This document shows positions 18,668 to 47,950 of a stretch of DNA of 64,000 nt, one piece after another. The stretch is taken from the NCBI GenBank assembly GCA_963737655.1, contig CAVTTN010000002.1, positions 6,496,001-6,560,000 of the forward strand, given 5' to 3'. Below the pieces are notes generated by a model that was given only the letters and a program-made list of their open reading frames with translations, did no database searches and was not told where the DNA came from. The translations under genes were made by a program, and so were the position numbers. Position 1 is the stretch's first letter, and each line of letters opens with the position of its first letter. Source of the stretch: an uncultured Planctomycetota bacterium (GTDB lineage: Bacteria > Planctomycetota > Planctomycetia > Isosphaerales > Isosphaeraceae).

Positions 18668-18739
18668 GGGCGATTAGCTCAGTCGGTAGAGCCCTGCTTT
18701 ACACGCAGGATGTCACAGGTTCGAGTCCTGTATCGCCCA
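18668..18739 (+). tRNA. tRNA-Val (TAC)
   Basis: Cloverleaf GGGCGAT/ATCGCCC, D arm GCTC/GAGC, CCTGC-TTTACAC-GCAGG, GGTTCGAGTCC; nucleotide 26 appears missing, likely a sequencing deletion; no encoded CCA. Confidence 0.93.
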
Positions 18740-18809
18740 CTGGAAGTCTTTATTTAACAAGGGTTTGCAATTATTTCGGCGAGTTCTAGTCCGCATGCCT
18801 TTTCCGCAG

Positions 18810-18990
18810 GATGATGCGACCGCGGCGCGGACCTTGTCCAGGCCCATGGCTCCGATCAAGGTTACCGACTCCCTTGACGGCGCTGCTGACGACGCGACCC
18901 GTTCCCCTCGCGGGTCTCGGCCTCCAGGCGTCATGGCCGATGTGACCCCGGTCTCGTCCACGAAAAGAAGCCCTGACGGGACATCGAAGC
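18810..18990 (-). mobile_element. IS630-family transposase remnant
   Basis: LLFVDETGVTSAMT..GRDPRGERV....SVTLIGAMGLDKV resembles the first DDE region of IS630 transposases; truncated on both sides. Confidence 0.7.
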
Positions 18991-19286
18991 CGATCGAGGC
19001 CTTCCTGATCGAGGATCGAAGCGGTCCCTCCAGGTCAAGGGTCAGCCGAATCGGTCGGGGCCCGGAGTTCGAGTGGCCGGTGATCGTCAGGACGTTGAAA
19101 AGGAACCGGACGGCGAGTTTCGGTCGAGAGACCTCACGGTGATCGCCATCACATCCGAGAGGCGGCAGTCAGAGGCCCCCCTCTTTCGCAGGGTGCTCCG
19201 CAACGGAACCGAACAACAATGAGGGGCCGGAACGCTCGATAGGAAGCGTCCCGGCCCTTGCGATAAGTCCGGCACGTCGCGAGATT

Positions 19287-22200
19287 CTACCTCGCGATGG
19301 GGCGTGGTCCGTGTGCTCGATGGTTATTGGTTTTCGACACCGGAAGGACCCCTTGGGGCGTGGCGGCCCGCGCGACGACCCGGACCGCGGCGGCATGGGC
19401 GGCCTTGAGGGCGCTCTTGTGCGGGACCACGACGGTGTGCTTCTTGCCTGCGTTCGGGGTTCCGAGCGGGTGCTTGGGCGACGCGTCGCCGTTCGGGGCC
19501 TGCCACGTCGTGAAGACCTTCTGTTGGGACCCTTGGAGCCCGATGACGAAGTCGCCGCCCGGTTTGTTGTTGCCCGAGCCAAAATACCCGTAGAACTCGC
19601 CGTCGAGGGCGTTGCCCGCGACGTCACGCAGGCCGTTGCCGGACAGCGTGCCTGCCCCGTCCGCGGAGTCGATGGTCAGGAGGAAACGGCCGCTGCCGAG
19701 AGCCGTGCCGTTGTCGATCGCGATCGTCAAGGTCTGCCGGTCGGTCGGCAGAGACGCGGGGGTCGCCGACAGCGAGGTCATGGGGTAAGGCGACTTGGTT
19801 GTCGGGTGCCCCGGTGCATACGCGCCAAAATGGTAGTTCGCCTTGTCGACCAGGGCGGTCTGGTCAAGCCCGGAGCGGTCGTCGGCCGCGGTCACGATGA
19901 TTCGTCCCTGCTTCCGGTTGAACTGAAGGCTCAGGACCTTCGGCCCCACCGTGTCGATGACGAGCTGCTGCGGCACGTAGGCGACGGCCACCGTCTGGCC
20001 GGAGGCGTCCGTGGCGGTGACGCCGATCGTGTAGACGCCGTCCGCCAGCGGCGAGTTGATCGGCACCGTGAACCGGCCGTCGGCACCGGTGGTGGCATGA
20101 CCCACCGGCGTGCTCCCCGAGGCCGAGATCGCGAACAGTTGGATCGTCGAGCCGGGCTCGGACCCGCCGAAGAAGCTGGGCGTGTTGTCGTTGGTGATGC
20201 CGTCGGAGTTCGACACCCCGTGGTCGTCCGCCGGGTTGAGGATCACGGAGACGTTGATGGGGACATCCGCCACCGCCGCGGTTCCGGCGAGGGCCAGCCC
20301 CTGGCCGCCGTCGTCCTTGACCGTGACGCTGATCGGGAACATGCCCGTGCCGTTGGCGTGGGCATCCGCATAGGTGTGGCTGCCGGTGATGACGAAGGCG
20401 GTCCCGACACCCCCCGGCTGGCTGATGCCGCCGAGGCTGGTGGTGCCGTCGCCCCACGAAATCGTGGCGGTGAAGTCGCCGACCGAACTGGAGGGGTTGG
20501 TGTCGTGGAACGAGCCGACCAGGACGTTCGAGAGCGGGAGCCGTTCGGTCGCCGAGAGGTTCGGCGTCGCGACCGGGACGAGGGAGGCGTCGGAGACGAG
20601 CGCGACGTTCGCCGTCATGGCTCCCCCGGACGGGTTGTCCAGGTCGCTGATCGCAACGTGGACGACGTAGCTGCCTGGTTCGGCATACGTATGCGACGGG
20701 GCGAGCACGCTGTAGCCCGTGGCACCAGACCGGATGCTGCCTTCGACGGCCGGCGAGCTATCGCCCCAGTTGATCGTCGCCGCGAAGTTGCCGATCGGGG
20801 CCAGGTTGTCGCCGTGATCGAAGGTCGCGATGACCTGGCCGGCGACGGTGGCGAGCCCTTCCGTCGTCGAGATCGGCAAGGCCGTGGCGGCCGTGATCCG
20901 CGAGGCCAGGACCGTCGCCTGGGAAGTGATCGTCGTGCCCGCCCCGCCCGAATCATTGACGGTGACGGTCGCGGTGAACGTGCCCGCCCCGGCGTAGGTG
21001 TGGTTGCCGAAGACGCTAAAGCGCGCTCCGGCGCCGAGCCGCCGACCAGGACCACGTTGCCGGTCGAGGGGGCTGTGTCGTCGCCCCAGTCGATGGTGGC
21101 CAGGAAGTCGGCGGCTGACGCCGCCCGGTTGCCGTCGACGAAACTTCCGAGCGGCACGTTGACCAGCGGCGCGGCTTCGGCCGTCGTCACGGCGACGCCC
21201 GACGCACCGGAGAGGGGCGCGTCGAGGACGATGGCCAACGTATTCGTCTGGTCACGGTTGCCATCCGTGTCGACGACCGAGGTCCGGATGACGAACGATC
21301 CCTCCTCGGCATAAGTGTGGCTCCCCTGGACCACGAAGTTGCCCGAACCGTTGCCGGGCACGATGGTGCCGACGGACGGCAGGGTGTCGTCACCCCAATC
21401 GATCGTGGCGACGAAACCCGAGGTCGTCGCGCCCGGCGAGCTATCGGTGAACGTGGCGACGATCGCGCCGGTGAACCGCGTCCCTTCGATCGTATCGATC
21501 CGCGATCCCGGACTGAGCACCGGCAGGATGGGCGCGGCCGGCTTGACCGCCACGAGGTTGCCGCCGATCGCCGAGGACGGCGATTCGCTGATGGTCAGCT
21601 TCAACGCGTAGCTGCCCGGGTCGGCGTAGGTGTGGCCGACGCTGGAGGAGACACGGAAGCTCGTGCCACCCAGGGAGATGATCTCGACGGACTTATCGAC
21701 GGGCGACCCGTCTCCCCAATCGATGCTCGCCGAGTACTGGCCGACCGTATCGACCCCCAGGGCGTCGCTGAACGTCCCGATCACCGTCTCGGCGGGGATT
21801 GCGGTCCCTGCGGTCGCCGTCTGGGGCAGCACGGCCACGCTCAGGGTGGACTGGGCGACCGTCACGTTGGTCGATTCCGGGGCGATCGTCAGCGACTGTC
21901 CCCCGATGTCGTTGACCAGGACCATCGTCGCGAAGCTGCCCGGCGATTCGTACGTGTGCGAGCCGTACACCGCGAAGATCGCCCCGGCGGCGGTCCCGCC
22001 GATCCGCACGACCTGCATGTTGGTGTCGATGCCCGAGACATCGCCCCAGTCGATCGCCGCGACGAAGTCGGCCTCGGTCGCATTCGGGTTGGCGTCGACG
22101 AACGTCGCGACCGGGACCGAATACAGGGGCACGTGCTCGGCCGCAGAGACCGGGAGCGACTTGCCGGTCGTCAACGGCGCATCGAGGACCGAAGGGACCC

Positions 22201-25200
22201 GGGAAGTGGCGATGGACGTATTGTTATAGGCGTCGGTGACTCGGACGGTGATGGTGTAACCGTTCGGGCCCGCGTGGGCGTAGGTGTGGCCGCCACTGAC
22301 GATGAAGTCGGTGCCGACGCCGTCGGGCTGGGTGATTGTGCCGACGGTCGAGGGCGTGCCGTCGCCCCAGTCGATCACGGCGGCGAAATCACTAGCGCTA
22401 GCGGTGGGATCGCCGGAGGTGAAGCTGGCGACCTGAGTTGCCACCGGGATTGGCTGCCCCTCGGTCGCGCCGATCGCGCCGGCGGTGGAAGCCGTCAGCG
22501 AGGCGGCGGTCACCACCGCCGAGCCGTTTCCGATGCCGAAGATTGCGAAGGTGTCGGCGACATAAACCGTGATGGGATAAATCCCGGGCTTGGCGTAGGT
22601 GTGCGTGGGCGCGGAGATGGAGTACATGCCATCCGTCATAAACATTGGGTCGATTGTAGCCGGCGTGGATTGGCCGTCGCCCCAGTCGACAAAGGCTTGA
22701 TAGTTCTCCACGGGATCGGCTCCGCCCGCGTCGAAGAAGACGCCGACGGTCTGGTCGGGGGTCGGCGTGGCGGCGACGGCGCTGATCGAGAGGACCGAGA
22801 CCGACAACGGAGTCAGCGTGATCGACGCGGTCGTGTCGATCGTCGTGGTCTCGCCGCCCGAATCGGTCACGGTGATGGTCACCATGTAATGCAAGTCAGT
22901 CACCGACGTGTAGACGTGCGAGCCGCTGACGGCGAACTTCGCGTTGCTCGCCGTGCCCCCGACCAGGGTGGCGAAGCCGGTATCGGCGGGCGTCCCGTCG
23001 CCCCAGTCGATCGAAACGGTGAAGTCGGCGGCCGTGGCGAGCGGGTTGCCGTCGAGGAAGGTGCCGAGCGGGATGTTGGAGAGCTGCTGGCCCTCGGCCG
23101 CCTGGAAGGGGAAGGCGGTCGGGCTGCTCAATGGCGCGTCGGCGACCGAGGTGATCTGGGTCGTCGCGACGGACGCGTTGTTGAAGGCGTCGGTCACCCT
23201 CACAGTCACCGTGTAGCCGCCCGCCGTCTCGTGGGCGTAGGTGTGACCGCCGTCGACGAGGAATGCGGTGCCGACGCCGCCGGGCTGGGTGATGGTGCCG
23301 ATGGTCGAGGGCGTGCCGTCGCCCCAGTCGATCACGGCGCTGAAGCCGGCGACGGCGGCGGTCGGGTCACCCGAGAGGAATCTGGCGACCTGGGTTGAGC
23401 CAGGCAGCGGCTGTCCTTCGACTGCGCCAGTGATCGGGTTGCCGTCGAAGACCGTCAGCGAGGCGGCGGCGACCACAGCCAGACCATTTCCGCTGCCCGA
23501 AGTCGTGCCGGAGTCATCGACGGTGACCGTGGTGGGATAGAGTCCCGGCCTGGCATAAGTGTGCGCCGGCGCGTTGACGTTGAACAGGCCCGGTTGACCG
23601 GGGACGGCCGTGATCGTGACCGCCTCGGACGTGTCGTCGCTGGTGCCATCGCCCCAGTGGACGGTTGCCGAATAGTTCCCCACGGGATCGGCACCACCGG
23701 CGTCGAAGAAGGTGGCGATGACCTGACTGGCGGTCGGGGTGGCGGCGACGGCGTTGATCGAGAGGACCGAGACCGAAAGCGGTGTCTGCGTGACCGTCGC
23801 GGCCGTGTTGATGGTCGTGGTCGCGCCTCCCGAATCCGTCACCGAGACGGTGACCGCGTACGGCGAGCCCGCCGCCGAGGCATAGACGTGCGAGCCGCCG
23901 ACGGCGAACTTGGCGTTGCTCGCCGAGCCGCCCACCAGGGTGGCGAAGCCGGGATCGCTGGTGGTGCCGTCGCCCCAGTTGATCGACACGGCGAAATCGG
24001 CGGCCGAGGCCAGCGGGTTGCCATCGAGGAAGGTGCCGAGCGCGATGTTCGAGAGCTGCTGACCTTCACCCGCCCAGATCGGGAACCCCGTCGGGCCGCT
24101 CAGCGCCGCGTCGGTGACCGTGATGGAGGTGGTATGCGCGGCCGTCGAGCCGTTGAGATCGGCCACGTCGACGCTGAGGGTGTAAGGGGTGCCGCTGGTG
24201 TGTTCGGGGTAGGTATGGATGCCGCTCACGGTGTAGGTGGCACCGCTCTTGACGATCGTGCCGAGGCTCGAAGGACTGCCGTCGCCCCACGAAATCGTGG
24301 CGGTAAATTCGGCGGCGGTGGAATTGGGGTTGCCGTCGGTGAAGGTCATCAGTGCGATGGCACCGGTGAAGTTCACCCGGGCCCCCTCGGTGACCGACGC
24401 CGACGCGATCCCGCCGGTGGTCGTCAGAGGGGCGTCGGCAACGGTCGCGATATTGCCGCCAAGTCCGGTGGACGTCCCGTTGACGACGGTGAGCTTCAGA
24501 GCGTAGGTGCCGGGCGTGGCGTAGGTGTGCCCGTTTCCGGTATCGACCCGGAAGGCCGAACCGCCCAGGGCGGTGATGACGACGGACGTGTCGGGGGCCG
24601 ATCCGTCACCCCAATCGAGCGAGGCCGAGTAGTTGCCTACCGGATCGGCTCCGGCGAGGTCGAGGAAGGTCCCGACGGCCGTTCCCGAGAGGATGGCGGT
24701 CGCCTCGGTCGCCGTCTGAGGCAACGCGGTCACGCTCAGGGCTGACTGCATGACGTTCGCGTTCTCCGAGCCCGGCGTGATGGTGAGGGTCGAGCCGTCC
24801 TGATCCGCCACGTTGACGACGATCGAGTAGGAACCCGCCGCGTCGTAGGTGTGCGTCCCATAGACCGCGAAAATCGTCCCCGAGCCACCGCCGCCGACGA
24901 GGACCACCTCGGCGTTGGAATCGATGCCTGAATCATCCCCCCATTCGATCGTGGCGGTGAAGTCGGTCGCGGTCGCAAACGGGTTGGTGTCGACGAACGT
25001 CCCGACCGGGATGGACACCAGCGGCTGATGCACGACCGACGAGACCGGCAGCGGCGTGCCCGTGGTCAGCGGGGCGTCGGCGACCGAGGTGACCGGGGTG
25101 ATGGCGACGGACGAGTTGTTGAAGGCGTCGGTCACCCGCACGGTGACGGAGTAGCCGCCTTCGGCCCCGCGCAAGTAAGTGTGGCCGCCGCTGACGAGGA

Positions 25201-27813
25201 ACGTCGTGCCGACGCCGCCGGGCTGGGTGATGGTGCCGATCGTCGAGGGCGTGCCGTCCCCCCAGTCGATCACGGCGCTGAAACCGGTGATGGCGGCGGT
25301 CGGGTCACCCGAGAGGAAGCTGGCGACCTGGGTCTGGGGGGCGAGCGGCTGCCCTTCGACTGCGTCAGCAATCGGGATTCCGTCGGAGGCCGTCAGCGAG
25401 GCGGCAGCGACCAGGGCGAACCCATTGCCGCTGCCCGACGTCGTGCCCGAGTCAACGACAGACACGCTGATGGGATAGAGCCCGGGCGTGGCGTAGGTAT
25501 GTGCCGGAACGGTGACGGTGAACAGGCCCGGCTGCCCGGAGACGGCGGAGATCGAGACATCCGGGAGCGTGTTGCTGGTGCCGTCGCCCCAGCTCACGAA
25601 CGCGGAGTAGTTGCCCACCGGATCATTACCGCCGGCGTCGAAGAAGGTGGCGATGACCTGGCTGGAGGTCGGGGTGGCGGCGACGGCGTTGATCGGCCTG
25701 GCGTAGACCGAAAGCGGCGTCTGCGTGACCGTCGCGGCCGTGTTGATGGTCGTGGTCGCGCCTCCCGAATCGGTCACCGAGACCGTCACCGCGTACGGCG
25801 AGCCCGCCGCCGAGGCATAGACGTGCGAGCCGCTCACGGCGAACTTGGCGTTGCTCGCCGAGCCCCCGACCAGGGTGGCGAAGCCGGGATCGCTGGTGGT
25901 GCCGTCGCCCCAGTTGATCGACACGGCGAAATCGGCGGCCGTGGCGAGCGGGTTGCCGTCGAGGAAGGTGCCGAGCGGGATGTTGGAGAGCTGCTGGCCC
26001 TCGGCCGCCTGGAAGGGGAAGGCGGTCGGGCCGCTGAGTGCCGCGTCGGTCACCGTGATGGCCGATGTGTGCGTGGCCGTCGAGCCCGCGAGGCTGGTCA
26101 CGGTCACGCGGAGGGTGTAGGGCGTGCCGGTGGTGTGCTCGGGGTAGGTGTGGATGCCGCTCACGGTGTAGGTGGCACCGCTCTTGACGATGGTGCCGAG
26201 AGTCGCCGGCGAGCCGTCTCCCCAGGAGACCGAGGCAGTAAATCCGGCGGCGGTGGAATTCGGATCGCTATCGGTGTAAGTCATCAGGGCGATGGCGCCG
26301 GTGAAGTTCACCCGGGCCCCTCGGTGACCGACGCCGACGCGATCCCTCCGGTGGTCGTCAGAGTGGAGGCGGCGGCTCCGGAGACGAGTGCGAGGCCGTT
26401 TCCGATGCCCGAGGTCGGGTCAGAGTCATTGACCGAGACCGTGAGCGGATAGAGCCCGGACGCGGCATACGTGTGCGCCGGCGCGTTGACGTTGAACAGG
26501 CCCGGTTGCCCGGAGACGGCGGTGATCGTGACGGCTCCGGTCGTGTCGTCGCTCGTGCCGTCGCCCCAGAGAACGTTGGCGGAGTAGTTGCCCACCGGAT
26601 CGGCGCCACCGGCGTCGAAGAAGGTGGCGATGACCTGGCTGGAGGTCGGGGTGGCGGCGACGGCGTTCATGGAGAGGACCGAGACCGAAAGCGGCGTCTG
26701 CGTGACCGTCGCGGCCGAGTTGATGGTCGTGGTCGCGCCTCCCGAATCCGTCACCGAGACCGTCACCGCGTACGGCGAGCCCGCCGCCGAGGCATAGACG
26801 TGCGAGCCGCTCACGGCGAACTTGGCGTTGCTCGCCGAGCCGCCCACCAGGGTGGCGAAGCCGGGATCGCTGGTGGTGCCGTCGCCCCAGTTGATCGACA
26901 CGGCGAAATCGGCGGCCGTGGCGAGTGGGTTGCCGTCGAGGAAGGTGCCGAGCGGGATGTTGGAGAGCTGCTGGCCCTCGGCCGCCTGGAAGGGGAAGGC
27001 GGTCGGGCCGCTGAGTGCCGCGTCGGTCACCGTGATGGCCGATGTGTGCGTGGCCGTCGAGCCTCCGAGGTCAGTCACGGTCACGCGGAGGGTGTAGGGC
27101 GTGCCGGTGGTGTGCTCGGGGTAGGTATGGATGCCGCTCACGGTGTAGGTGGCACCGCTCTTGACGATCGTGCCGAGACTACTGGGGCTGCCATCGCCCC
27201 AGGAGATCGAGGCGCCGAATTCGGCGGCGGTCGAGTTAGGGTTGCCGTCGGTGAAGGTCATCAGGGCGATGGCGCCGGTGAAGTTCACCCGGGCCCCCTC
27301 GGTGACCGACGCCGACGCGATCCCGCCGGTGGTCGTCAGAGGGGCGTCCTCGACCACTGTGCTGCTGGTGATGAGGCCGTTGGTGGAGTCGGATTCGTCG
27401 GAGACCGTCACCGTGATCGGCTGGGAGCTGCTGCCGGTCTCCTCGGGAAAGGTGGTTCCACCCGTGACGCTGTACTGGGGCACGGCCCCCACGTTCGGCA
27501 CGAAGACGCTGCCGATCAGATTGATCGTGCCGACGGACGAAGTCGGCGTGGCCGTCGGCCCCCAGTTGATCGTCGCCGACAGGCCGCCGAGGGCGGAAGA
27601 GCTGGCGAACGTCCCGACCACCGCGCCGGCGAACGCCGTCCCTTCGACCGGGCTGGGCGCCATGATCACCCCGATCGGGTTGTCAATGGTCAGCAAGCAG
27701 CGATCTTCCAGTCGCTCGAGGAGGAACCGTCCACGACACTTCGTCGGATGACCGACCGAATTCCTCGTCGTCCGACCCTTCGCCTTCTGTGACTTGCCTT
27801 GACCCTGCGTCAT
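19287..27813 (-). CDS. Giant (~2,840 aa) PKD/Ig-like repeat surface adhesin with LExRxLL N-terminal motif (frameshifts ~26318 and ~21035)
   Basis: ERLEDRCLLT near the N-terminus; many 'A.I.WGDG...HTY...G.Y...V.V.D' repeats; Big-like NDNTPSF domain; C-terminal LRDVAGNALDGEF. Confidence 0.88.
23699..27348 (-). repeat. Three near-identical ~730-bp intragenic repeats in the adhesin
   Basis: Copies at about 23699-24436, 25634-26362 and 26611-27348, with long identical DNA stretches. Confidence 0.85.
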
Positions 27814-28276
27814 CGCCGTGACTCCCTGGAGATCCGCCAGCCTGGAACCGCAAATCCTCGCGAACCGCGCGACGAACCACCCGGAGCGAGCGAAGCTCGT
27901 TCGTCGAGAAAGTGGTATTGCGTCCGACGCGCAGAGGCTCAGACGATCAACCGATTGGCAGGTGTAGCCCCTGGGCCACGCGCTCGGTGTTTCGGGGCCG
28001 ACTCTGTTCGGTTCGCGGGCACTTAGGGGGAATCTAGAACAAGGATTGTCACGGGCCAGCTAATTAATTAATAGCGGATATGAATGCATGTTTTGTGCAA
28101 CTTCTTCGATAAATACCCTCAAGCTTCCCTGAACTCCGACATCCAAGAGAGGCAGAGAATGGCAGGGTTACGGTCTAGCGCCTTCGGAATTGGCGAGGAA
28201 ATCTGGAATTCCTGCAAACCATCAAACACGCAACGCGATTTTCTAAAGCATTGTGTCAAAGAAAGTTGTGTCACGC

Positions 28277-28340
28277 GGGCGAGCAATCCTCCGCCTGCTT
28301 CACACGCAGGATGTCGGGGGTTCGAGTCCCTCATCGCTCA
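28277..28340 (+). pseudogene. tRNA-Val(CAC)-like remnant lacking the D arm (att-like)
   Basis: CCTGC-TTCACAC-GCAGG-ATGTC-GGGGG-TTCGAGT-CCCTC-ATCGCTC-A; 5' GGGCGA can pair; D arm replaced by a short linker. Confidence 0.75.
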
Positions 28341-28721
28341 TCGCAACCCTTGATTTGACAAGGATTTGCCGCCGTTCGTCGGCCGCCAGGGCACCTGCTC
28401 TCAGGCCAATCGGCTGGCCCGTAGAGGAGGGCCCTCGCCGATTGGGGCGCGAGAGGTGCGATCGACCTAGCGTGGTCGTTGCCAATTACCGGTCGGTCCG
28501 CACGCGGCTCAGGCGTGACACCGATCGATCCGACGTTCAAACTCTTGGCCAAATGTTGATATTACGAATGTGTCCCGATGCGACGCACGATCGCCGCAAG
28601 TTGCCCCGCCTCGGCGCTCATCGCTGTGACCACAGGTCGCGGCATGGTTACAATCGCTGCCGGCGACGGGTGGCGATCTACGTTGGACTACCCCCGATGC
28701 GCCACGATCTCGGAGTCAACC

Positions 28722-29117: not shown

Positions 29118-29375
29118 GCGTCGCGGAGTCCAAAGGGTTCCGAGGGCGGATGGACGAAGCGGGCCGAGCTTCGGTACCCCGATGCGGGGTCCCCTTTGCC
29201 CGCTTCGGTGTCGTCGCCCGAAGTGGCTTCCGATCCAGCGGTTTCGGCCCGTCGGGCCGAACCGAGCGAGCCGAGGTCAGCTGGCGCGCCGCTTCCCCGC
29301 TCGTCCCGGAACGACGATGGGCGGGGACGCCGCCTCGCTCGTCGATCCGGGCTTCGTGCGGTCGGCCCGGCCCGC

Positions 29376-30950
29376 TCAGGGCGAGGCCAGGGCGTCCAGG
29401 ACGGCATCGAAGGCGGGCTTGGGCTTGAGGGCCCGGTCCCAGAGCAGCGGGTGATTGGTGCGGCCGGCGACCGGCCAGGAGTTCAGCCAGGATGCGCCGT
29501 CGTGAGGGCCCCAGAAGGTCACTCGCGTGACCACGCCGGGGTGCTTCCGGACCGCCCGGAACAGACGCCCGTAGAAGCGGGCCTGGGCCTCGGCCACCTC
29601 CGGCGGTAGGCCGTCCCGATACGGGTTGGCCCCGCCCTGCTCGCGGGCCGCGACGTCGGCGCCGCCGTCGCGACGCGGTAAGACATCCACATCCAGCTCG
29701 GTGATCATGACCTTCACGCCCTCGGCCGCGTAGGCCGCGATCGCGCGGTCGAGCCGATCGGGGGCGTCGGCGTCGGCGAGCTTCATGTGGCACTGGAGCC
29801 CGACCCCGTCGAGGCGCACGCCCCGGGCCTTCAGCTCGCGGATCAGGCGGATCGTCTTCTCGAGCTTCTCGGGCTGCTCGTTGCTGTAGTCGTTGTAATA
29901 CAGCTCGGCGTCGGGGTCGGCCGCGTGCGCGAGCTCGAATGCCTTGACGATGTAGTCGTCGCCGATCGCGCGGCGAGCCGGCGTGTTGCGGAGGTATTCG
30001 CCCTTCGCGTCGCCGATCGCCTCATTGACCACGTCCCAGCCGATCACCTTGCCCTTGAAGTGGCCCATGACGGCGTCGATGTGGTCCTTGAGATTCTTCA
30101 GGGCCTCGTCGCGTGGCAGCGGCTTGCCGTCCGGGCCTCGGAACAGGAAGGCGGGCGACTGGCTGTGCCAGCAGAGGGTGTGGCCGACGACCTTCATGCG
30201 ATGGCGTTGGGCGAAGTCGACGATCTTGTCTGCCGGGGTGAAACGGAACTCGCCCGGCCGCGGGTGCAGGGAGATCGGCTTGAACTCGTTCTCGGCGGTG
30301 AGGCAGTCGAACTGTTCGGCGATCAGCGCCGCCAGGGGCGGGTTGTCCAGCTGCCGCGACGAGACCGCCGTGCCGACGAGGAATCGGCCCTTCGCGGCCT
30401 CTCGCAGGGACCGCGGCGCCGCGTCGTCCCCCGCCGTGGCGCGGACCTCCTCGCAGGCGAGGTAGCCGCCCGGAGGCGCTCCCGAGAAGCGGACGCAGGC
30501 GATGGCCGACGCCTTCACGGCCATCTCGAAGCTGGGGATCGGCTGCTCCGGCCCGGTCCGCTCCGGCACCCTGTCCCGGGATGCCCGGTCCAGGAGCTTC
30601 CCGTCGGCGTCGAACGCCTCGACGACCGCCTGGCTGCCGATCGAGCCCCAGAGCACGAGGGTGACGGCCGTCACCGGCTTCGGGAAGCGGACATCGACCG
30701 GGATCGACTCGTCCGCCATCGCGTTGAGGAGGCCCTTCCTCGGCGTCTTCAGGTGGGGGAAGAACATCACCTTCCCGGCGGCGCGGTTCCTGGTCGGCGG
30801 GCGCGACGGGGCGAACACGACGCCCTGCTCCTCGTAGCTCGGCATCGGCTTGCCGGCCTGGGCAGCGTCGAAGGTGATGAGAGTCGGGCCGTCGGCGGGC
30901 GCCCCGAGGCTGCCGAGGACTACCAGGGCGATCGAGAGGGCGTGCGTCAT
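29376..30950 (-). CDS. GH10 endo-1,4-beta-xylanase with an extra ~170 aa N-terminal domain
   Basis: TAENEFK, GHTLCWHSQ, WDVVNE (acid/base), YYNDY, GLQCH, ITELD (nucleophile). Confidence 0.92.
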   Translation of the reverse strand: MTHALSIALVVLGSLGAPADGPTLITFDAAQAGKPMPSYEEQGVVFAPSRPPTRNRAAGKVMFFPHLKTPRKGLLNAMADESIPVDVRFPKPVTAVTLVLWGSIGSQAVVEAFDADGKLLDRASRDRVPERTGPEQPIPSFEMAVKASAIACVRFSGAPPGGYLACEEVRATAGDDAAPRSLREAAKGRFLVGTAVSSRQLDNPPLAALIAEQFDCLTAENEFKPISLHPRPGEFRFTPADKIVDFAQRHRMKVVGHTLCWHSQSPAFLFRGPDGKPLPRDEALKNLKDHIDAVMGHFKGKVIGWDVVNEAIGDAKGEYLRNTPARRAIGDDYIVKAFELAHAADPDAELYYNDYSNEQPEKLEKTIRLIRELKARGVRLDGVGLQCHMKLADADAPDRLDRAIAAYAAEGVKVMITELDVDVLPRRDGGADVAAREQGGANPYRDGLPPEVAEAQARFYGRLFRAVRKHPGVVTRVTFWGPHDGASWLNSWPVAGRTNHPLLWDRALKPKPAFDAVLDALASP

Positions 30951-30953
30951 GGC

Positions 30954-32282
30954 TCAGGCCACCTCCAGGCCGGTCATCGTGCTTGTCGAGGGGCCGAAGC
31001 CGGCTTCCTCGATCCCCATCCTCCGGAGCATGGAGACGAACAGGTTCGGCAGCGGGTAGTTGCGTCCGCGGTCGAAGGCCAGGTGCTGGCCGTGGCGGAA
31101 GCCGCCGCCGGCGATCAGGGTCGGCAGGTTCGTCGTCGAGTGCGCGTTCGCGTCGCCGAGATTGGAGCCGTAGAGGACCATCGTGCGGTCGAGCAGCGCC
31201 TCGCCGTCTTCCCGGGCGGACTTCAGGCCCTTGAACAGGTCGGCGAGCAGCTTCATGTGCCATTCGTCGATGGTCTTGAGCTGCGTCAGCTTCTCCTCGG
31301 CCATCCCGTGGTGCGAGAGGTTGTGATAGCTGTCGGTGATCGTCGCGCCGGGGATCTGCACGACGGGCGTGCCGACGCTGTTGAGCATCAGCGTGATCGC
31401 GCGGGTCGAATCGGTCTCGAAGGCGAGGCGCGCGAGGTCGTACATGACCTGCACCCTGGCCATGTACTGGGCCGGGCTGGCCGGGTCGGTCGGCGGGCTG
31501 GCCTTGACCTTCGGCTTGGGCTTCTCGGCCCAGCCTCGCGACTCCTGGAGCCGGTGCTCCAGGTCGCGGACCCCCGAATAATACTGGTCGAGCCGGGCCC
31601 GATCGCGGGCGCCCACGCCCCGCCGAAGGTCCCTGGCCTGCTCGGCGACCGCGTCCAGGATGCTCCGCCCCGCGTCGATCTCGCGGATCTGCCGCTCGAT
31701 CTCGGCGGGCGTCCCTTGCAGGAAGAGCTGCTTGAACACCCCGGACGCCTGGCCCTCCGGCGGGATCGCGACGCCCGTCCGCGTCCACGACAGGCCGCGG
31801 CCGCCGTTGACCGCCAGGGTGAGCGACGGGAACCTCGTCAGCGTGCCGATCCTTTCGGCCACGAGCTGGTCGAGCGAGATCGAGTTCCGGAACGAGCTGC
31901 TGGCCGGGTGAGGGGCCGCGGTGAGGAAGCAGATGTCCGACGGATGGCCGCCGTCCACGAACGGGTGGGACACGCCGCTGAGCACGGTGAAGTCCGCGCG
32001 ATGCTCTTCGAGGTGCTTCAGATACGGCGAGAGCGTGTAATCGCGGCCGGCGTCCTCGGGGAAGAACGGCCTCGGCAAGACGCCGAGATTGTTGCAGATG
32101 CAGAACATCCGCCGGGGCACCGGGCGGGGGCCGTCGGCCGCTCTCACGGACGGGGCGCGCATCGACTCGAGCGAGGGCAGCGCCATCGCCACGGCCGAAC
32201 CGCGGAGGAAGCGTCGCCGAGAGATCGGCCTCCGCCTCGTCGCGAACGGCGGCCTGGACTCGGACCCGGTTTGCGGGCACAT
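30954..32282 (-). CDS. DUF1552-family protein with Tat-like signal
   Basis: ISRRRFLRG...[42 protein letters not shown]. Confidence 0.85.
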
Positions 32283-32294
32283 GGCCGGTCCCCC

Positions 32295-35065
32295 CTACTT
32301 GTTGCGGAACAGGTCGCTCTGGATGATCGCGTGGACGAGGCTGCTCACGCCGTAGTGGCCGTCCTTCGTCGCGTCGAGGATGGCCTCGATCGCCGCCCCG
32401 TCGGAGAACCGCGCCGGGGCGCCGGTGGCGAAGACGGTCAACTGCCGGGCCAGGTTCCTCGCGATCGGCCGCTCGTCCCGGACGAGGAGCCGCTTCAGCT
32501 CGCGCACGTCCTTGAACGGCCGGCCGTCGGGCAGCGCGCCGGCCGAATCGACGGGCAGGGCGAAATGGAACGCGAACGCCTGCCCGTTCATGCCGAACCC
32601 CTGGACCGCGGGGACCTTCTCGGACGCCGCGCGGTATCGCTCGCGGTAGCCGCCCATCACGTCGAAGCTCTCCAGAGCGAAGCCCGGCGGGTCCATCTTG
32701 CTGTGACAGGAGGCGCAGCTGAGGTTGGTGCGATGCTTCTCCAACTGCTGGCGGATCGTCACCGCGCCGCGGATGTCCGGCTCGACGGCCTCGACCGTCG
32801 GCGGCGGGGGCGGCGTCTCCAGCCCCAGGATCCGCTCGGTGATCCAGTGGCCGCGGAGCACGGGCGAGGTCGTCGTGCCGTTGGCCGTGACCTTCAGGAC
32901 GCTGGCCTGCGTCATGAACCCGCCCCGGAGGCCGTCTTCCGGCAGCTTCACCTTGCGGAAATGGACGCCCGAGACGCCGCCGATCCCGTAGTGATCGGCC
33001 AGCCGCTCGTTCAGGAAGGTGAAGTCGGAATCGACGATGTTCCTCGACGGCAAGTCGGCTCTCAGCAGTTCGGCGAAGAACAGCCGGGTCTCCTCCAGCG
33101 AGGCCAATTTCAGGGGGTCGTCGAGCTCGTAGTCGTTGTAGAGCGTGGCGGACGGCGCGGTGTCGTCGATCTTCCGCAGGTCGAGCCAGTAGTCGGTGAA
33201 CGCCTCGACGAACCGGCGTGATCTGGGATCGCCGAGCATCCGCTCGGCCTGGGCGCGCAGGACCTCGGGCTTGCTCAGCTCGCCGGAGTCGGCCAAGGCC
33301 CGCAAGGTGTCGTCGGGGATCGAGTTCCACAGGAACAGGGCGAGCCTCGTGGCCAGGGCGCGGTCGTCGAGCCGGCCCGGTTCCTCCTCGACGAACACGA
33401 AGCCCGGCGACGCCAGGACGGCCGTGTAGGCCGAGAGCAGGGATCGCCCGAATCCGGCCCCCTTTCCGGCCTGGTCCTCGAACAGCGCCAGGAACCGCTT
33501 GACCTCGTCCTCGGCGACCGGCCGGCGATAGGCCCGCTTCAGGAACGATCGCAGGAGCCGCTCCGCATCGTCCCTCGGCGCCGCGGATTCGACTTCATAG
33601 AGGGCCTCGCGGACGGCGCCCCGCCCGGGTCCGCCGGCTCCGGCCCGCGCCTCGCGCCGGGGCCCGCGGATGGGCCGGGGCCACCCGGGCCGATCTCGAG
33701 CGACACCCCGGGCCGCGGCGGCTCGGAAGGCACGAGTTGCAACTTGTCGAACAATCGTTCATACCCCGCGTCGGCGGTCGCGTCGTCGTGAAACGGCCCC
33801 TCGACCTCGATCCACTGGAGGGCGTAGCCCGGCATGCCGTCCTCGGTGGCCAGGGGATTGACGTATTGCTCGTCCGTACCGTTGACTCGGGCGCGGAAGA
33901 GCCGGGAGCCGTCGGTCCGCACGACCTCGTTGGCCAGGAGGTCGACGTCGATCTCGCGCACCTCGGGCCTCGGGGTCAAGTCGATGGCGCCGATCGGCCG
34001 GGTCTGGCCGCCCCCCTGCGCGTACACGCCGATCGGCTCGTCCCTCCGGCCGGGGTAGACCTCGTCCAGGTTCGGGCGGTGCCACAGGAGCGTGTGATAC
34101 ACGGGTGCCTTCGCGGCCCCCTGGCCCTCGTAGAACCATCGCGCCACGCCGCCGCCGGCGACCCAGATCGTGTACCCGGAGATCCGCAGCTTGTAGCGCG
34201 CGGCGACCGGCGCCCTCCAGCCGTTCCAGCTGTAGCCGCCCGCGTCGCTGAAGATGCTGGACACCCGGCCGACCGCCTCGCGATCGCGCGTCTCCGGTCG
34301 GGTCGCCGGGGCGCGGCCGGCGCGGACGTCCGGCTGGGCATGCGAGTCGAGCACGGGGAACGAGAGGCGGTCGGGCAGGGTCCCGTTCTCGCGGGGCCAC
34401 CAGTTCCGCAGGCTCGGCTCGTCGCGGGCATACAGCCGGCGAGTGGCCTTCGCCGGCCTCGCGAGGTGCCTCGCCATCGCCTGCCTCATGGCGTAGTCGG
34501 CCGAATCCATGAACCGCGCGATCTGGAGGTAGGAGACGTCCAGCGCCTCGCCGCTCTTGTTGAAGTGATATGCCTCGCCATCCTCGGGCAGGCGACGGGC
34601 GACCTGGGCCCAGGGGACGCCGAGCAGGTCGCGCAGGGCGTTCTGGTATTCGTCGCGATTGAGCCGGCGTCGGATCGCCCGGCCCTCGCCGGCCAGCTCC
34701 GCCCGCTCCGCGGAGATGATCGACCTCGCCAGGTCCTCGACGAAGGCGGCCTGCCGGCCGGCGTCGGGCCGGGCCTCGCCCCGGGGCGGCATCTCGCCCG
34801 CCTTCACGCGATCGTGCACCTTGATCCAGACGGCCCGGTTGGCGGGATCGCTCGGGGCGAACGCCAGGCCGGTCAGGTCGAGCCGGCCCTTCTTGCTCAC
34901 GTCATTGTGGCAGCTCGCGCAATGATCGCTGACGAACGCGTCGTCGGGGTCGGCGAGCTCGACCGCGACGGCCGACCGGCCCCCGAGCAGGACCAGCGCC
35001 GCGAGCCCGAGAATTCGGAGGCGGGACCTACCAAGGCCATCCCCGAGGGATCGGTGTCGCATCAT
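32295..35065 (-). CDS. Planctomycete cytochrome c plus DUF1587/1595/1592/1588/1585 protein (frameshifts ~33600 and ~33440)
   Basis: CASCH at both ends, [61 protein letters not shown]. Confidence 0.85.
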
Positions 35066-35118
35066 CGCTGGTTCCTGGTCGAGTGGCGTTGGCGGACCTG
35101 CGAGGGCCGGGGGCCCGC

Positions 35119-36307
35119 CTAATCCTGGAACACGAGGGCGCGAACTGGTAGAGGCTCCGCCGCCAGGTCTGCCACTCGTGGGCCGTGTTCGGGGATTCAT
35201 AGTATGTGTTCTTGATGCCCAGCTTTTCCAGCGCCTCGTGGTTCGCCTTCGCGGCGGCGGTGTTCTCCTTGCTGCCGTAGCTCACGAACAGCACTCGGAC
35301 CTTCTCCTTGAAGGCCGACGGGTCGGCCAGCGCCGGGTCATTCGCCGCGATGCTGCCGCCGCTGAAGAGCCCGATGCCCGAGAACTTGTCGAGGTTCGCG
35401 AGGGTGATCTGCTTGGTCTGCCCGCCGCCCATCGACAGCCCCGCCATGGCCCGATGCGGCTGGTCGGCGATCGTGCGGAAGTTCGCATCGATGAACGGGA
35501 TCAACTCCTCGATCATGATCTTCGCGAAGCCGGAGACGTCGAACCTCGGGCGAGGGGCGCACCGGCGCCGGCGGCGGCAGGTGCGGGGGGACGTCGCGGC
35601 CCGCCGCCGAAGTTGTTGCCGCCGTTGTCCATCACGATGAGGAACGGCTTCGATTTTCCTGCCGCGATCAGGTTGTCCATGATCAGGTTGGCACGCCCCT
35701 GGTTGCCCCACCCGGTCTCGTCCTCGAATGCGCCGTGCTGGAGATACAGCACAGGATACCGCTTGCTCGGGTCCTTGTCATAGTCGGGCGGCGTGTAGAC
35801 GAAGCAGCGGCGGGTGGCGTTGGTGCTCTTCGAGAAGTACATGGCCTGGCGGAGCTGGCCGTGAGGGACGTCCTTGACGGCGTAGAATTCCTCGTCCTGG
35901 GCCGGGATCTCGATGGCGCTGCCCATGCGGCCGGCGCCGAAGAAGAACTTGCTGCCGGGGTCCGGGACGTCGGCGCCGTCGATGTTGATCCGGTAGTAAT
36001 GGAACCCCTCATCGATGGGACGCGACGTGCCGACCCAGGCGCCGTCCTCGCCTTTGGTCAGGGTGATCCCGCCCCACTCGGGCACCTTCACGCTCTGGGC
36101 CTGGGGCGCGACGACTCGGAAGCGGGCGCGGCGCTCGGAGTTGACCTGGGGATACTCCTTGCCGCCCTGGTTGGACGACGCCGGCTTGAAATCTTCGACG
36201 ACCGTCGCGGGCTGGGCCGGCGCGGTCTGGGGAGGCGTGGCCTGCGCCAATGCGACCTGGCCGGCCAGCAGGGGCAGGAATACGAAGCCCATCGTCGCGG
36301 CCCTCAT
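35119..36307 (-). CDS. CE1-like esterase with N-terminal CBM48/E-set-like domain (frameshifts ~35555 and ~35135)
   Basis: [41 protein letters not shown]; signal peptide; start could be GTG 36352. Confidence 0.85.
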
Positions 36308-36374
36308 GACGCTGCTCCTCGGTCTTGAAGCGAAGTTCCGGCCCACGGACACAAGATCAGGGGTCGCCGTCCCG

Positions 36375-37826
<1,452 letters not shown>

Positions 37827-37879
37827 GTTCCACCCCCTTTGTGACCGGCCCTTGACCGAGGTGAGTCGTCCAGTTCTTC

Positions 37880-44336
<6,457 letters not shown>

Positions 44337-44591
44337 CGTTCGGATTCCCTCGCGATGCGAGCCGGCCGGCGGAGTCTCGGACGGACGCCCGCCCCTCGCC
44401 GGCGAAATCTGCGCAAAGCAAACCGGAGGATTCCCCAATCCCGGTTTGACGGCCTCTCCAGGGATTTCCGGCCGGGCGCCGCCTCTGGGTGCGGTCTCGT
44501 CCGAGACCCGGACGGCCCACACCACGACCTCGGAGACGCGCGGCCTCTGGATAGTCTGTTGGGAAATCCGCCGCGAAAGTTACAGCGTCCG

Positions 44592-47500
44592 TCAGAAGTT
44601 TCGGTCGGGCCCGGACCGGCGGGTCGCCGGGACCGGGTTCGCCGAGCGGACCGCCTGGACGCCGTCCCAGAACTCGCGGAGGGAACGCCGCTCCGCTTCG
44701 GGGAGCGTCGAGAGGGCGGGCTCCTCGCGGATGGACGCCAGGGCCGGATCCACCTGCCAGCGGCTGAGCCGTCGGGCGACGCCCGCTCGCTGCGAGGACG
44801 TGCCCGAATCCACGATGGCCGTCGACGCCGCGAGGTCGGCGCGGAGCCACTCGACCGCCTGGCGACGCCACTTCGCCCGCGACTCGGCCCCCGATCCGGC
44901 GAGATCCCGACCGCCCTCGGCCCCGGAACGGGCCGCGGCGCGCGCGGCCTGGAAGCGATTCATGGCCACCAAATCCGCCGCGAGCTCGGGAGAGGCCTCG
45001 AACGCCCCGGTCCAGAGGCGGGCCGCCGCCTCCGCCCGGTCTCTCGCGAAGGCCAGGCGAGCGAACGACGCGGCCTCCTCGGCGTTCGCCGGCGCCTCGC
45101 ACCCCTCCATCACGGCGGGAAGTCGCGGTTCGAGGGCGATGAGCTGCTCCGCTCGAGACACCAACATCTCGGACGTGAGGAACGGGTCCGGCGGCGGACC
45201 CGGCCCGATCCGGGCCAGCGCCTCGAGTGCCTCGCGCGGCTCGCCCGCCTCGATCAGCGCCCGGCCGAGGAAGAGATGCGACGCGGAGATTCGGGGATCG
45301 AGTCGCACGGCCTCGCGGAATTCGGCCACCGCCTCGCCCAGCCGACCGGCCGATTGCAGGGCGTGGGCGAGCGCCTTGTGCGCCACGCCCATCGCGGGGA
45401 AAAGGCGGACGGCCTCGCCCTGCTCCCGGATGGCGGCGTCCCAGTCGCCGCGATCGGAGAAGGCCAGCGCGACCTGATCCCGGACCATCCAGTCCATCGG
45501 CTTCAACCGTTTCGCCTCCGAGAATTCGGCGCGGGCCTCGGACGACGCCCCCAGCGCGAGCAGCGCCGAACCGAGCGCGACGTGCGAGAGCGGGTCGTCG
45601 GGCCGGAGCCGGGTCCACTGGCGGAACAGCTCGGCGGCCTCGCCGGGTTGTCCGCTCAGCAGGATCGCCCGACCCAGGCCGCCCAGGGCCAGGGGGCTCT
45701 GGGGCCTCACGCCCGCGGCGACGGCGTAGAAGCGGATCGCCTCCTCGGGACGATTCGAGGCCAGGAACTCGCGACCCAGGTCGGCGTTCACCCAGAAGTC
45801 GTCGCGATGCGCCGCCTGCGCCCGCCGGAGCAGGGCGATCGCCGTGTCGCGCCTCCCGAAGATCGCCAGAGAGGTCGCCAGCCGGGTGACGCTCGTGACC
45901 GGGAGATGCTCCACGTCCGCGGTGGCCGCGAGCCGCTCCAGCACTTCGAGGCGACGGGCCGGGCCGCCTTGCATGCGGCCGACCGTGTCGCGCAGGCGGT
46001 CCCTCCACGAGTCGGGATCGGCGGCCCTGGCCACCGCGACGAGGCGATCGGCACCCGCCGGGTCGTGCAGGACACGACTCCGGCGCAAGATCGCCCACTG
46101 ATCGAGGGCGCTCGCAAGCTCCGGGGCGACCGGGCTCGTCGTCAGCAGACGGCCGGCGGCCGGGGGATCGAGCGAATCGACGTCGACGCCGTAGGCGCGG
46201 AACGCGGCCGCGTAGTCGGCGTTGGCCTTCCGCTCGTCGCCGTGGACGCCGAAGTCGTTGAGGACCGCCGCCAATCGCTCGACGATCCGGCGGTCCTTTT
46301 CGACGTCCTCGATCGCCTCGCGTTCTCGCGTGAGTTCGTCGAGGAACCGGCGGACCCGCTGCGTCTGTTCGAGGGTCGCGTCGCTGCCGGTGAGGAGCGT
46401 CTCCGCGCGCCTCGCCGCCTCGATCGCCTCGACCCAGAGGATCGGGTCGCCCCCCGCGGCGATCGCCTTCTCGCGCTTCTTCGCGGAATCGGCGAGGGCG
46501 GCGTTGACTGCGACCTCCACGGCCCCGAGGCGCCGGCGTCGTTCGCGGCCCATCCACCCCCAGCCGGCCGCGCCGATCAGGCCCGTGATCAGCACCGACG
46601 CCACGAGGGCAAGCGTCAACTGACGACGACGACGCTCGCCCGCGGCCCGCGCCTCGGCCCTGACCGTCGCCAGCTCGGCATCCCGCAAGCGGCCTTCCAC
46701 GCCGCGGAGGTACGCGGTCAGTCCCAGGACGACCACGCTCGCGTCGCGGGGTCGATGTTTCGGCACGGCCGCCAGGCACGTCCGGGCCAGCGCCACGAGC
46801 TCGGCATCGGCCCCGCAGGCGTCGAGTCGCCGGAAAGCCTCCGAGAGATCGGCCCTCTCGGCCTTGCGGTAAACCTCGGAGGAAGCCTCGCCCACGAACG
46901 CCGGCTGGCCGGTCAGGATCTCGCACAGGATGGAGCCGAGGGCGAAGACGTCGGCCCGCTCGTCGAGCGTGTCCATCGCCCCGCGAGCCTGCTCCGGGGC
47001 CATGTACGAGGGGGTGCCGAGGACGGAGCCGGGCCGCGATTCCATCATCTCCGAGCCGTCCCGCCAGGTCCGAATGACCGACGCGTCATCGCCGGCGGAG
47101 CTGGGCCGATCGCCGTCCGCCTGGCCGCACAGGTCGAGCACCTTCGCGAGGCCCCAATCCATCACCTGGACCTCGCCGAAGCTGCCCACCATCACGTTCG
47201 ACGGCTTGAGGTCGCGATGGATCACGCCCTTCGAATGGGCGTAGGCCACGGTCTGGCCGACCTGCTCGAAGACGGCGAGAAATCGGGTGCGTTCGTCGTC
47301 GGGGCCCCGTCGCGCCGCCAGCAAGGCCGCCAGGGTTCGGCCCCTCACCAGCTTCATCGCGATGAACATCCGGCCGTCGGGCAGGCGGCCCAGCTCGTGA
47401 ACCGGGACGATCCCCGGATGCTGGAGCTGCCCGCCGATCTGCGCCTCCTCGACGAACCGCCGGACCATCTCGGGATGCTCGCGGTGCTCCTCGCGCATCA

Positions 47501-47913
47501 CCTTGACGGCCAGGTCGCGGCCGAGGTAGAGGTCGCGGCCCTGGAAGATGGCCCCCATCCCCCCGCGCCAGCTCGCCCAGGAGCTGATATCGGGTGGATG
47601 GGTCGGGATGCGCGTGACCTTCCGCCGAAGTCGGTCGGATCAGCGGGGCGTCATCGGACGATTCGCGAAGGTGGACACGCACCTTCGTCGAGTCGAAGGG
47701 AGGAGCCCCCTCCTCGGGCGATCCGTGGGCCTCCGGATCGAACGAGATCGCGGCCCCGAGGCGGAGAAGGCACCGGGGACAGAGCCCGGCCGGGGAGTTG
47801 CTCGGCGGGCGTTCTCCGCAGTCGGGACACGTCTCGGCTCCGCTCATCGCACCCGCCCCGTTCCGGTTCCCGTTCCCGTTCGCGTCCGACACCGAAAGCC
47901 ACCTCGTCTTCAT
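44592..47913 (-). CDS. Hanks-type Ser/Thr kinase with N-terminal CxxC..CxxC, TM segment and TPR repeats (frameshift ~47560)
   Basis: AVK, HRDLKPSN, DWG, GTPSYMAPE, DVFALG; CPDC...CPRC; C-terminal TPRs. Confidence 0.9.
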
Positions 47914-47950
47914 TGGGGAAATGGTCGCGAGCGTTACACCCCGAGCGGGC

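Follow-up and report, generated by a model that had tools for sequence, protein, structure and literature searches.

Integrase-free units that accrete in tandem at the ends of tRNA and tmRNA genes have been described as cis-mobilizable elements (CIMEs; PMC5704250), a situation to which the ssrA islands of Dehalococcoides also belong (PMC3146451); CIMEs are described as decay products that are moved in cis. Attachment sites centred on the anticodon form another known class, in which the element enters at the anticodon loop and provides the tRNA gene with a fresh 3' half (PMC4383910). Here we describe a 9.6-kb block that starts at a tRNA-Val(TAC) gene within a 64-kb window (G000:C2:6496001-6560000; positions below are those of this window unless a contig is named) of the genome of an uncultured bacterium of the Isosphaeraceae, a window among whose proteins planctomycete-type domains are seen. 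We consider it probable that this block is an integrase-free cassette on which an integrase supplied in trans acts at the anticodon loop, and whose 10-5-10 palindromes serve as bending sites for integration host factor (IHF).

The block retains attL and attR and has no integration or transfer genes, as CIMEs do, and its relatives resemble CIMEs in standing in tandem at one target gene with related autonomous elements alongside. Unlike CIMEs, however, the integrase-free cassettes of this family form the majority of the units seen, have a left-arm layout of their own, occupy at least six tRNA types and stand up to five in a row; together with the near-identity of one cassette in two genera, these features suggest movement in trans. 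The locus likewise shows what is expected of an anticodon-centred tRNA island, namely an intact tRNA gene followed downstream on the same strand by a 3' fragment that starts in the anticodon arm, except that the block has no integrase of its own. The islands collected by Islander (PMC4383910) are similar in their rebuilt tRNA gene, displaced 3' fragment and anticodon-loop crossover, but Islander, which lists four tandems of three or more among 3,919 islands, demands an integrase gene for each island, so that cassettes of the present kind would be filtered out. The tycheposons of Prochlorococcus (bioRxiv 10.1101/2020.12.28.424599) also bring small cargo to several tRNA genes, with newcomers pushing older elements inward and with integrase subtypes for each tRNA, but they are defined by an integrase of their own, which the cassettes here are without.

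Results

The block carries two tRNA junctions with swapped 3' halves, three palindromes and a right arm of 150 bp, and it contains no recombinase gene. At its left border (attL), ARAGORN calls tRNA-Val(TAC) at 18668-18740 (+ strand), in agreement with the original prediction, which had placed at the far end a diverged tRNA-Val(CAC)-like copy. This second identification did not stand. The distal copy (28292-28340, + strand; attR) has neither a 5' half nor a D-arm, scores 28.6 bits in Rfam (under the cut-off of 29), is unlike the real Val(CAC) of the same genome, and becomes identical to the intact gene only from the anticodon stem onwards. It matches the Val(TAC) 3' half of relatives at 97.8% over 46 nt, with two substitutions of which the second lies near the end, and its CAC anticodon is a single substitution in the loop of the fragment (TTCACAC at 28299-28305, differing at 28301 from the TTTACAC of the left junction). 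The fragment carries the T-stem GGGGG/CCCTC, as do 21 of the 26 Val(TAC) genes of relatives; the intact gene of the window carries ACAGG/CCTGT, found in 2/26 Val(TAC) and 3/8 Val(GAC) genes of relatives, and in both Val(TAC) relatives with this stem a host-type half has likewise been displaced, lying 2.5 and 28.6 kb downstream. Because its T-stem is foreign to most relatives, we infer that the 3' half of the intact gene derives from the incoming cassette, and the distal copy is the 3' half of the host's own Val(TAC) gene, which integration at the anticodon loop has displaced. Since fragments in relatives start at tRNA positions 27-31, strand exchange would fall within the 7-bp loop at 18698-18704 (+ strand). 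As a separate observation, the intact gene has one base fewer at 18692, before the anticodon stem, than most relatives; an indel error of the assembly is possible there, as are single-base errors of this kind in the XerD-like gene at G000:C2:7000169-7002160, which seems frameshifted.

The two 27-mers that follow the tRNA ends, at 18742-18768 and 28343-28369, are indeed identical at 21 of 27 positions and equally distant from the tRNA end. The original prediction had read them as two direct-repeat sites of 11-6-11 geometry; the motif is more than a chance occurrence, but a third copy at 28244-28268, stronger than the second of the pair, had been overlooked. Similarity past a tRNA end is also less unusual than had been supposed, given that the motif stands there in 15 of 34 tRNA-Val genes of relatives, a figure obtained with a symmetric pattern derived from those very sequences. 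Scored with a matrix trained on 15 sites of relatives only, none of them from this genome, palindrome 1 (18743-18767), in what is likely the left arm of the cassette, reaches 23.5 bits and ranks fifth in the chromosome; palindrome 3 (28244-28268), in the right arm, reaches 21.1 bits; and palindrome 2 (28344-28368), which would belong to the left arm of an older downstream element, reaches 14.0 bits (rank 118).

By these scores the palindromes are 10-5-10 rather than 11-6-11, and they do not look like crossover sites. Matches above 15 bits in the 7.6-Mb genome number 93 at a spacer of 5 bp, compared with 27 at a spacer of 6 bp and 23-38 across spacers of 3, 4, 6, 7 and 8 bp. Palindrome 1 falls from 23.5 to 12.9 bits when the spacer is lengthened to 6 bp; palindrome 2 is ambiguous by itself (14.0 vs 12.9 bits). 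Following tRNA-Val of relatives (n = 34), pattern scores of at least 9/12 are reached 15 times at spacer 5, 8 times at spacer 6 and 9 times at spacer 4. A matrix built on the two originally noted sites with a 6-bp spacer was discarded: it showed no spacer preference (61 matches vs 53 at spacer 5), and its top 25 matches held none at a tRNA end save its own training site. A strict palindrome pattern gave 0 matches.

The original prediction implied an enrichment of the motif at tRNA ends and island borders, and such an enrichment was found. A site lies within 8 nt of the gene end in 8 of 42 tRNA/tmRNA genes, as against 0.6% of matched background windows, and six of the nine tRNA-fragment junctions in this genome carry a motif above 10 bits on the island side. 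Palindrome 3 begins 55 nt before tRNA position 31; among 33 distinct Val(TAC) junctions, 19 have a scoring upstream motif, 16 of these at exactly the same distance. Most of the top matches in the genome (62/70) have no tRNA gene within 400 bp and no Pfam integrase match within 2 kb, and the motif therefore seems to be a general host motif.

Attachment sites of the lambda type are laid out as a core, an IHF site and arm-type sites. The right arm of the block (28149-28296, + strand) contains the integrase arm-type words GGCAGAGAA at 28151 and GGCAGGGTT at 28161, a GGCAGAG word and phased A-tracts, and the arm keeps a fixed distance to the core. Lambda-type arms such as those of KplE1 (PMC2951348) are alike in possessing a core, a bending-protein site and repeated arm words at both ends, but differ from the cassettes, whose bending site is symmetric and which encode no integrase or excisionase. 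The 150 bp that precede the tRNA fragment align nearly gap-free with 20 arms of relatives, and no other copy of this arm is found in the genome. A sequence model built from the resulting 21 arms matched 132 places in 49 of the 121 family genomes (training rows included) and only two weak places in 114 genomes outside the family, while a pattern scan for two arm words in 185,579 species genomes returned one match, which lies in a phylum unrelated to this one. The 3' halves that stand behind the arm are those of Val(TAC), Val(GAC), Ala(TGC), Ala(CGC), Pro(CGG) and Lys(CTT).

In 17 genomes, 35 cassettes from 32 regions could be seen with both ends; their median length is 4.4 kb, and five stand in a row at one tRNA-Ala. 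A tyrosine recombinase homologue was found in none of the 35. Searches with the Pfam families of tyrosine, small serine and large serine recombinases and with phrog_1, which detects all 5/5 divergent control integrases, found none inside the Val arrays of the genomes tested, and the 64-kb window holds no tyrosine integrase. The original prediction of an integrase-less cassette thus agrees with the block as well as with the family, its statement that the window lacks an integrase is confirmed for tyrosine integrases, and the tandem stacking of modules consisting of tRNA tail and palindrome, which it had also proposed, is seen in relatives. One cassette of 4,227 bp occurs in two genera with 99.8% identity over its full junction-to-junction length. 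Cargo is varied (kinases, extracytoplasmic function sigma factors, WD40 and TPR proteins, a fermentation block), and no proteins were common across cassettes except kinases, sigma factors and repeat proteins. A 28.6-kb family cassette (L112-L113, G066:C4) contains genes for glycolysis, pyruvate:ferredoxin oxidoreductase and NiFe hydrogenase as well as RND genes, several of them in pieces.

Left arms of the cassettes contain a full palindrome, often with a second one about 100 bp further on; those of autonomous elements consist of a half site, arm repeats and the integrase start. When the family was examined for the decay that defines the CIME class, the right arm was found to be common with autonomous elements, the left arm different, and no integrase remnant present. 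Judged by the alignments, the same right arm is found at the end of the integrase-free cassettes that stand in stacks at tRNAs for Val, Ala, Pro and Lys and at the end of integrase-bearing elements of 50-110 kb. Some left arms (L148, L149, L154 and, weakly, window 28385-28410) also contain, about 45-55 bp after the tRNA end, an inverted repeat in which a copy of the tRNA-Val anticodon stem encloses another 7-bp centre. It is possibly a decoy or an accessory core site.

With no recombinase gene in the block, one from elsewhere would be needed, as the original prediction had foreseen, and a candidate integrase family was found in relatives. With L082:9172-10065 as query, it was searched in the 121 genomes and matched in 62 of them. 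At 22 of the 27 loci read, the integrase gene directly follows a tRNA, behind a half motif and two direct arm words. In six genomes (G022, G127, G130, G060, G136 and G080) the same tRNA type recurs as a fragment behind a family arm 50-110 kb from the integrase, and the arm word of the integrase end recurs in the distant arm. The tyrosine integrases of these 50-110 kb elements are likely the helper. In the present genome no family member was found at E 1e-12, the closest gene being 26% identical, and no autonomous element adjoins the block. Seven of eight island-bearing tRNA loci of this genome have an integrase match, and two other element classes at Val(TAC) have their own integrases and different arm words.

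Several further recombinases were considered. Five islands of this genome at first passed as integrase-free by Pfam, but four of the five hold divergent or broken integrases; Pfam alone being insufficient, it was supplemented by PHROG and tblastn checks. Two divergent tyrosine integrases, one next to tRNA-Arg(ACG) (L180:476-2266) and one next to tRNA-Gln(CTG) (L182:3048-4379), were missed by Pfam and found by PHROGs. XerC- and XerD-like genes are present in the genome; a third Xer-like gene (G000:C2:6777126-6778106) was dropped as helper, its motifs reading as those of an integron integrase. Integrases inside or beside some arrays were set aside as well, being IS91-type passengers or members of other arm classes. 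A distant relative of the helper family at G000:C2:6702890-6703995 is not at a tRNA and is preceded by a sigma-54-like site and an IHF-like motif, and an array of 13 tRNA genes (L316; G066:C5 ~949600-951400) adjoins a tyrosine integrase gene.

The consensus of the palindromes, TAAGTCGTTG-N5-CAAGGATTTA, reads CAR-N4-TTR on both strands, and its 5-bp spacer sets the inner TT and AA steps 9 bp apart. One of the IHF kinks falls at an AA step. The published Escherichia coli IHF consensus is WATCARNNNNTTR, with kinks 9 bp apart (PMC8421141); measured against it, CAR-N4-TTR is matched on both strands of the palindrome and the WAT part is not conserved in the spacer. The best-kept letters are the outer TTR elements on both sides. 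Without selection by score, the outer AA columns are kept in 21/21 and 19/21 of the right arms and the outer TT columns in 21/21 and 20/21; in leaders treated likewise, the outer AA/TT columns are kept in 16, 13, 19 and 19 of 21.

The motif occupies fixed positions not only in att arms but also in CRISPR leaders and sigma-54 promoters, all of them settings of IHF. Other genomes of the class yielded 29 Cas2 loci, of which 24 have an array; in the leaders of these, 19 of the 21 spacer-5 matches are centred either 23-27 or 115-120 bp away from the first repeat. Several IHF sites have been reported in leaders of type I-C and I-F (bioRxiv 10.1101/2023.05.26.542337). The second-best site of the present genome lies 24 bp from a CRISPR array, and the motif stands 41-55 bp upstream of 3 of 20 sigma-54-like sites. 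In the CRISPR leaders L329-L357 we also noticed that a TTCGCG word is conserved about 50 nt ahead of the first repeat, where it immediately precedes the proximal IHF-like site. At G000:C2:5965580-5972433, at the far end of a 67-kb tRNA-Gly(CCC) island, a CRISPR array lies between two opposed cas1/cas2 pairs, with the tRNA-Gly fragment of that island between the array and the second pair.

Two HU/IHF proteins are encoded in the genome, and one of them, encoded in the region G000:C2:2909589-2909855, aligns best with IHF. Its Arg41, Glu43, Arg45 and Val69 align with Arg42, Glu44, Arg46 and Val70 of IHF-beta, which are listed as specific to that subunit (bioRxiv 10.1101/2024.06.24.600358), and Arg, Glu and Arg are retained in 28 of its 30 top family matches. 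The second HU-like protein, found in nearly all of the 41 genomes searched, does not have the Arg-x-Glu-x-Arg strand. Across the family, an IHF-beta-like protein is present and no clear alpha subunit was found. The system is thus alike to E. coli IHF (PMC8421141; bioRxiv 10.1101/2024.06.24.600358) in CAR-N4-TTR, in the 9-bp kinks, in the four beta-subunit markers and in its predicted use in att sites, CRISPR leaders and sigma-54 promoters, but E. coli IHF occupies a one-sided site as an alpha-beta heterodimer, whereas the site described here is a dyad and the only subunit found is beta-like. We consider it likely that the palindromes are IHF bending sites in which the consensus has been made symmetric; a beta-type homodimer would read TTR on both sides.

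The cargo of the block is a long adhesin-like gene with PKD and Ig-like repeats (19287-27813, - strand; PKD, Big_13 and Big_6, with weak NCBIfam adhesin-repeat matches). It is read as three overlapping frames (26308-27813, 20615-26311 and 19287-20879), broken near 26310 and near 20700-20880, and its paralogues elsewhere in the genome are 30-44% identical. A similar gene beside tRNA-Val in the congener G002 was rejected as evidence of synteny, its identity of 29-37% being at the level of paralogues and no fragment lying within 40 kb.

Downstream lies a block of glycoside hydrolase, esterase and cytochrome genes (29304-48679), possibly the cargo of an older element. It is 70-85% identical to a block of G002:C10 that starts about 330 bp after tRNA-Leu(CAG) and partly matches G001:C6, both congener copies lying in other places, and the core genes that flank it show 45-69% protein identity; it is probably acquired DNA. 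The suggestion that this locus, too, is cargo holds as far as its extent is concerned (29.3-48.7 kb), which matches the block common with these two congeners, but no right end was found, since neither the window nor the rest of the genome has another tRNA-Val fragment or arm. The cumulative GC-skew minimum of the chromosome falls at window ~18960 (G000:C2:6514960), where the strand bias of tRNA genes flips nearby, and the replication origin may lie close to that point.

Discussion

According to the mechanism that we propose, the N-terminal domain of the helper integrase would contact the arm words and its catalytic domain the anticodon stems, an IHF-beta-like homodimer would bind the palindrome and bend each arm so as to fold it onto the crossover, and strands would be exchanged within the 7-bp anticodon loop. 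A circle landing on an intact tRNA would then rebuild the gene while displacing the old half together with the left arm of the previous element, and each new cassette would shift the older ones outward. The two palindromes that flank the block would be equally spaced after the tRNA end because each is the first site of a left arm. The window copy is probably stuck now, since its loops differ at one base and no close helper integrase was found in the genome. The idea of a cassette mobilised in trans appears to be largely borne out, with mobilisation itself put forward as a proposal. No sequencing run is listed for the region, which counts neither for nor against it.

Could the cassettes, with these same junctions and IHF sites, simply be decayed remnants of autonomous elements that lost their integrase after landing, with no separately travelling family behind them? 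We regard this as unlikely but deserving of serious attention. Decay followed by accretion is the published route to tandem islands (PMC5704250), and Dehalococcoides has 15 module-less next to 16 module-bearing islands (PMC3146451). The window copy, with its loop mismatch, degenerate arm and broken reading frame, looks old, and the sample of cassettes is biased towards short units. Yet a detectable integrase piece was found in 0/35 cassettes, whereas seven of the eight tRNA island loci here and the other Val(TAC) classes keep their integrases; the left arms of cassettes are built differently from those of autonomous elements; and one cassette recurs almost unchanged between its junctions in a second genus. 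That no remnants were found, that the left arms are distinct and that a cassette is common to two genera would argue against decay as the whole story.

The remaining explanations concern the palindromes. Binding by another dimer, be it an element-encoded directionality factor or a heterodimer of the HU family, instead of an IHF-beta homodimer, would accommodate the wide distribution of the second HU-like protein and the unconserved WAT of the E. coli consensus, and the pairing of palindrome and IHF is deduced from sequence. We nevertheless find it quite improbable: the motif occurs in CRISPR leaders and near sigma-54 sites, which are established IHF settings, and most top matches stand away from tRNA genes and integrases, so that the binder is likely a host protein; the second HU-like protein, moreover, has no Arg-x-Glu-x-Arg strand, and it is the outer TTR that is best kept on both sides. 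Sites of the dif/Xer type have an 11-6-11 architecture. The proposal that the palindromes are such cores, served by host XerC/D or an orphan Xer, could draw on the likeness of an imperfect inverted repeat of about 28 bp, on palindrome 2, which by itself accommodates spacers of 5 and 6 bp equally well, and on the existence of XerC- and XerD-like genes, but spacer length, arm letters, boundary position and chromosomal position do not fit. A 5-bp spacer dominates both the genome and the CRISPR leaders; only 3-4 of 13 positions match the dif core pattern; spacers vary freely between adjacent sites, where crossover spacers must match; the island boundary lies in the anticodon stem-loop (tRNA positions 27-31), about 45 bp before the palindrome; and the locus coincides with the minimum of the cumulative GC skew, which is the switch on the origin side. 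A dif-like scan of the genome gave one weak candidate, at C2:4306606, and this part of the original prediction we consider very improbable. The outcome named beforehand as its refutation, a terminator or tRNA-processing hairpin copied in an old duplication, is scarcely credible in turn: although the palindrome stands 1-4 nt after the tRNA end, it folds no better than shuffled sequences (z +0.49, -1.18 and +0.50), there is no U-tract behind it, a copy of equal quality is found upstream of the fragment, and the 3' halves at the two junctions belong to different tRNA alleles.

Several observations weigh against a trans-mobilised cassette with IHF-bent arms and should be kept in view. The arm words form an inverted pair in most relatives, whereas those of the window are degenerate and in direct orientation, and 21 of the 132 arm matches are the training set of the model. 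The 35 cassettes had to fit the fetched stretches, a design that excluded long elements and favoured short ones, and 18 further arm matches were dropped, ten without a T-loop fragment and eight without a left end. Both genomes that share the 4,227-bp cassette are incomplete assemblies, so a binning error is conceivable. On the side of the helper, the six 50-110 kb elements are defined by their two ends only, the Val(TAC) members in G089 and G097 are both interrupted near their start, and the query found no match in the array-rich genomes G070, G071, G077 and G049 (60-95% complete). As for IHF, scoring leader sites occur at only one of the three arrays of this genome, 17 of 20 sigma-54-like sites have no motif, a model-free symmetry test is weak (5.03 vs 4.66 +/- 0.18 at spacer 5, with spacers 3 and 7 similar), the IHF-like protein scores under every NCBIfam (equivalog) cut-off, and a heterodimer of this protein with the second HU-like protein is possible.

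In the literature covered, which takes in few subscription journals, no symmetric IHF site in planctomycetes and no cassettes of this kind were found, and a motif for planctomycetes may already have been published outside it. What the comparison points to is integrase-free tRNA cassettes that resemble CIMEs, occur across the family and bear a symmetric IHF-type site. A 2025 preprint on Acidobacteria states that homodimerisation and specific DNA binding of a lone IHF-beta remain to be seen. A bolder reading, whose chances we would place a little short of even, is that there is a dedicated pool of small integrase-free cassettes that borrow the integrase of passing 50-110 kb elements, stack at tRNAs and cross genera intact, and that an IHF-beta homodimer reads their symmetric site, which would make this the first case to be worked out in which a lone IHF-beta has a defined motif. 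The stacking would then be similar to that of integron arrays, but the pool would build on tRNA anticodon loops.

The symmetric site and its candidate protein turn the question of the lone IHF-beta into a quick binding experiment, and they provide an IHF motif that can be put to use on the promoters, CRISPR leaders and att sites of planctomycetes. Genome engineering in a group with few tools may also profit from an integrase family whose arms serve several anticodon cores. Finders that depend on an integrase miss such cassettes, of which the arm model enables a census; in this family of large-genome bacteria they would constitute an uncounted route for the exchange of kinases, sigma factors, surface proteins and metabolic blocks.

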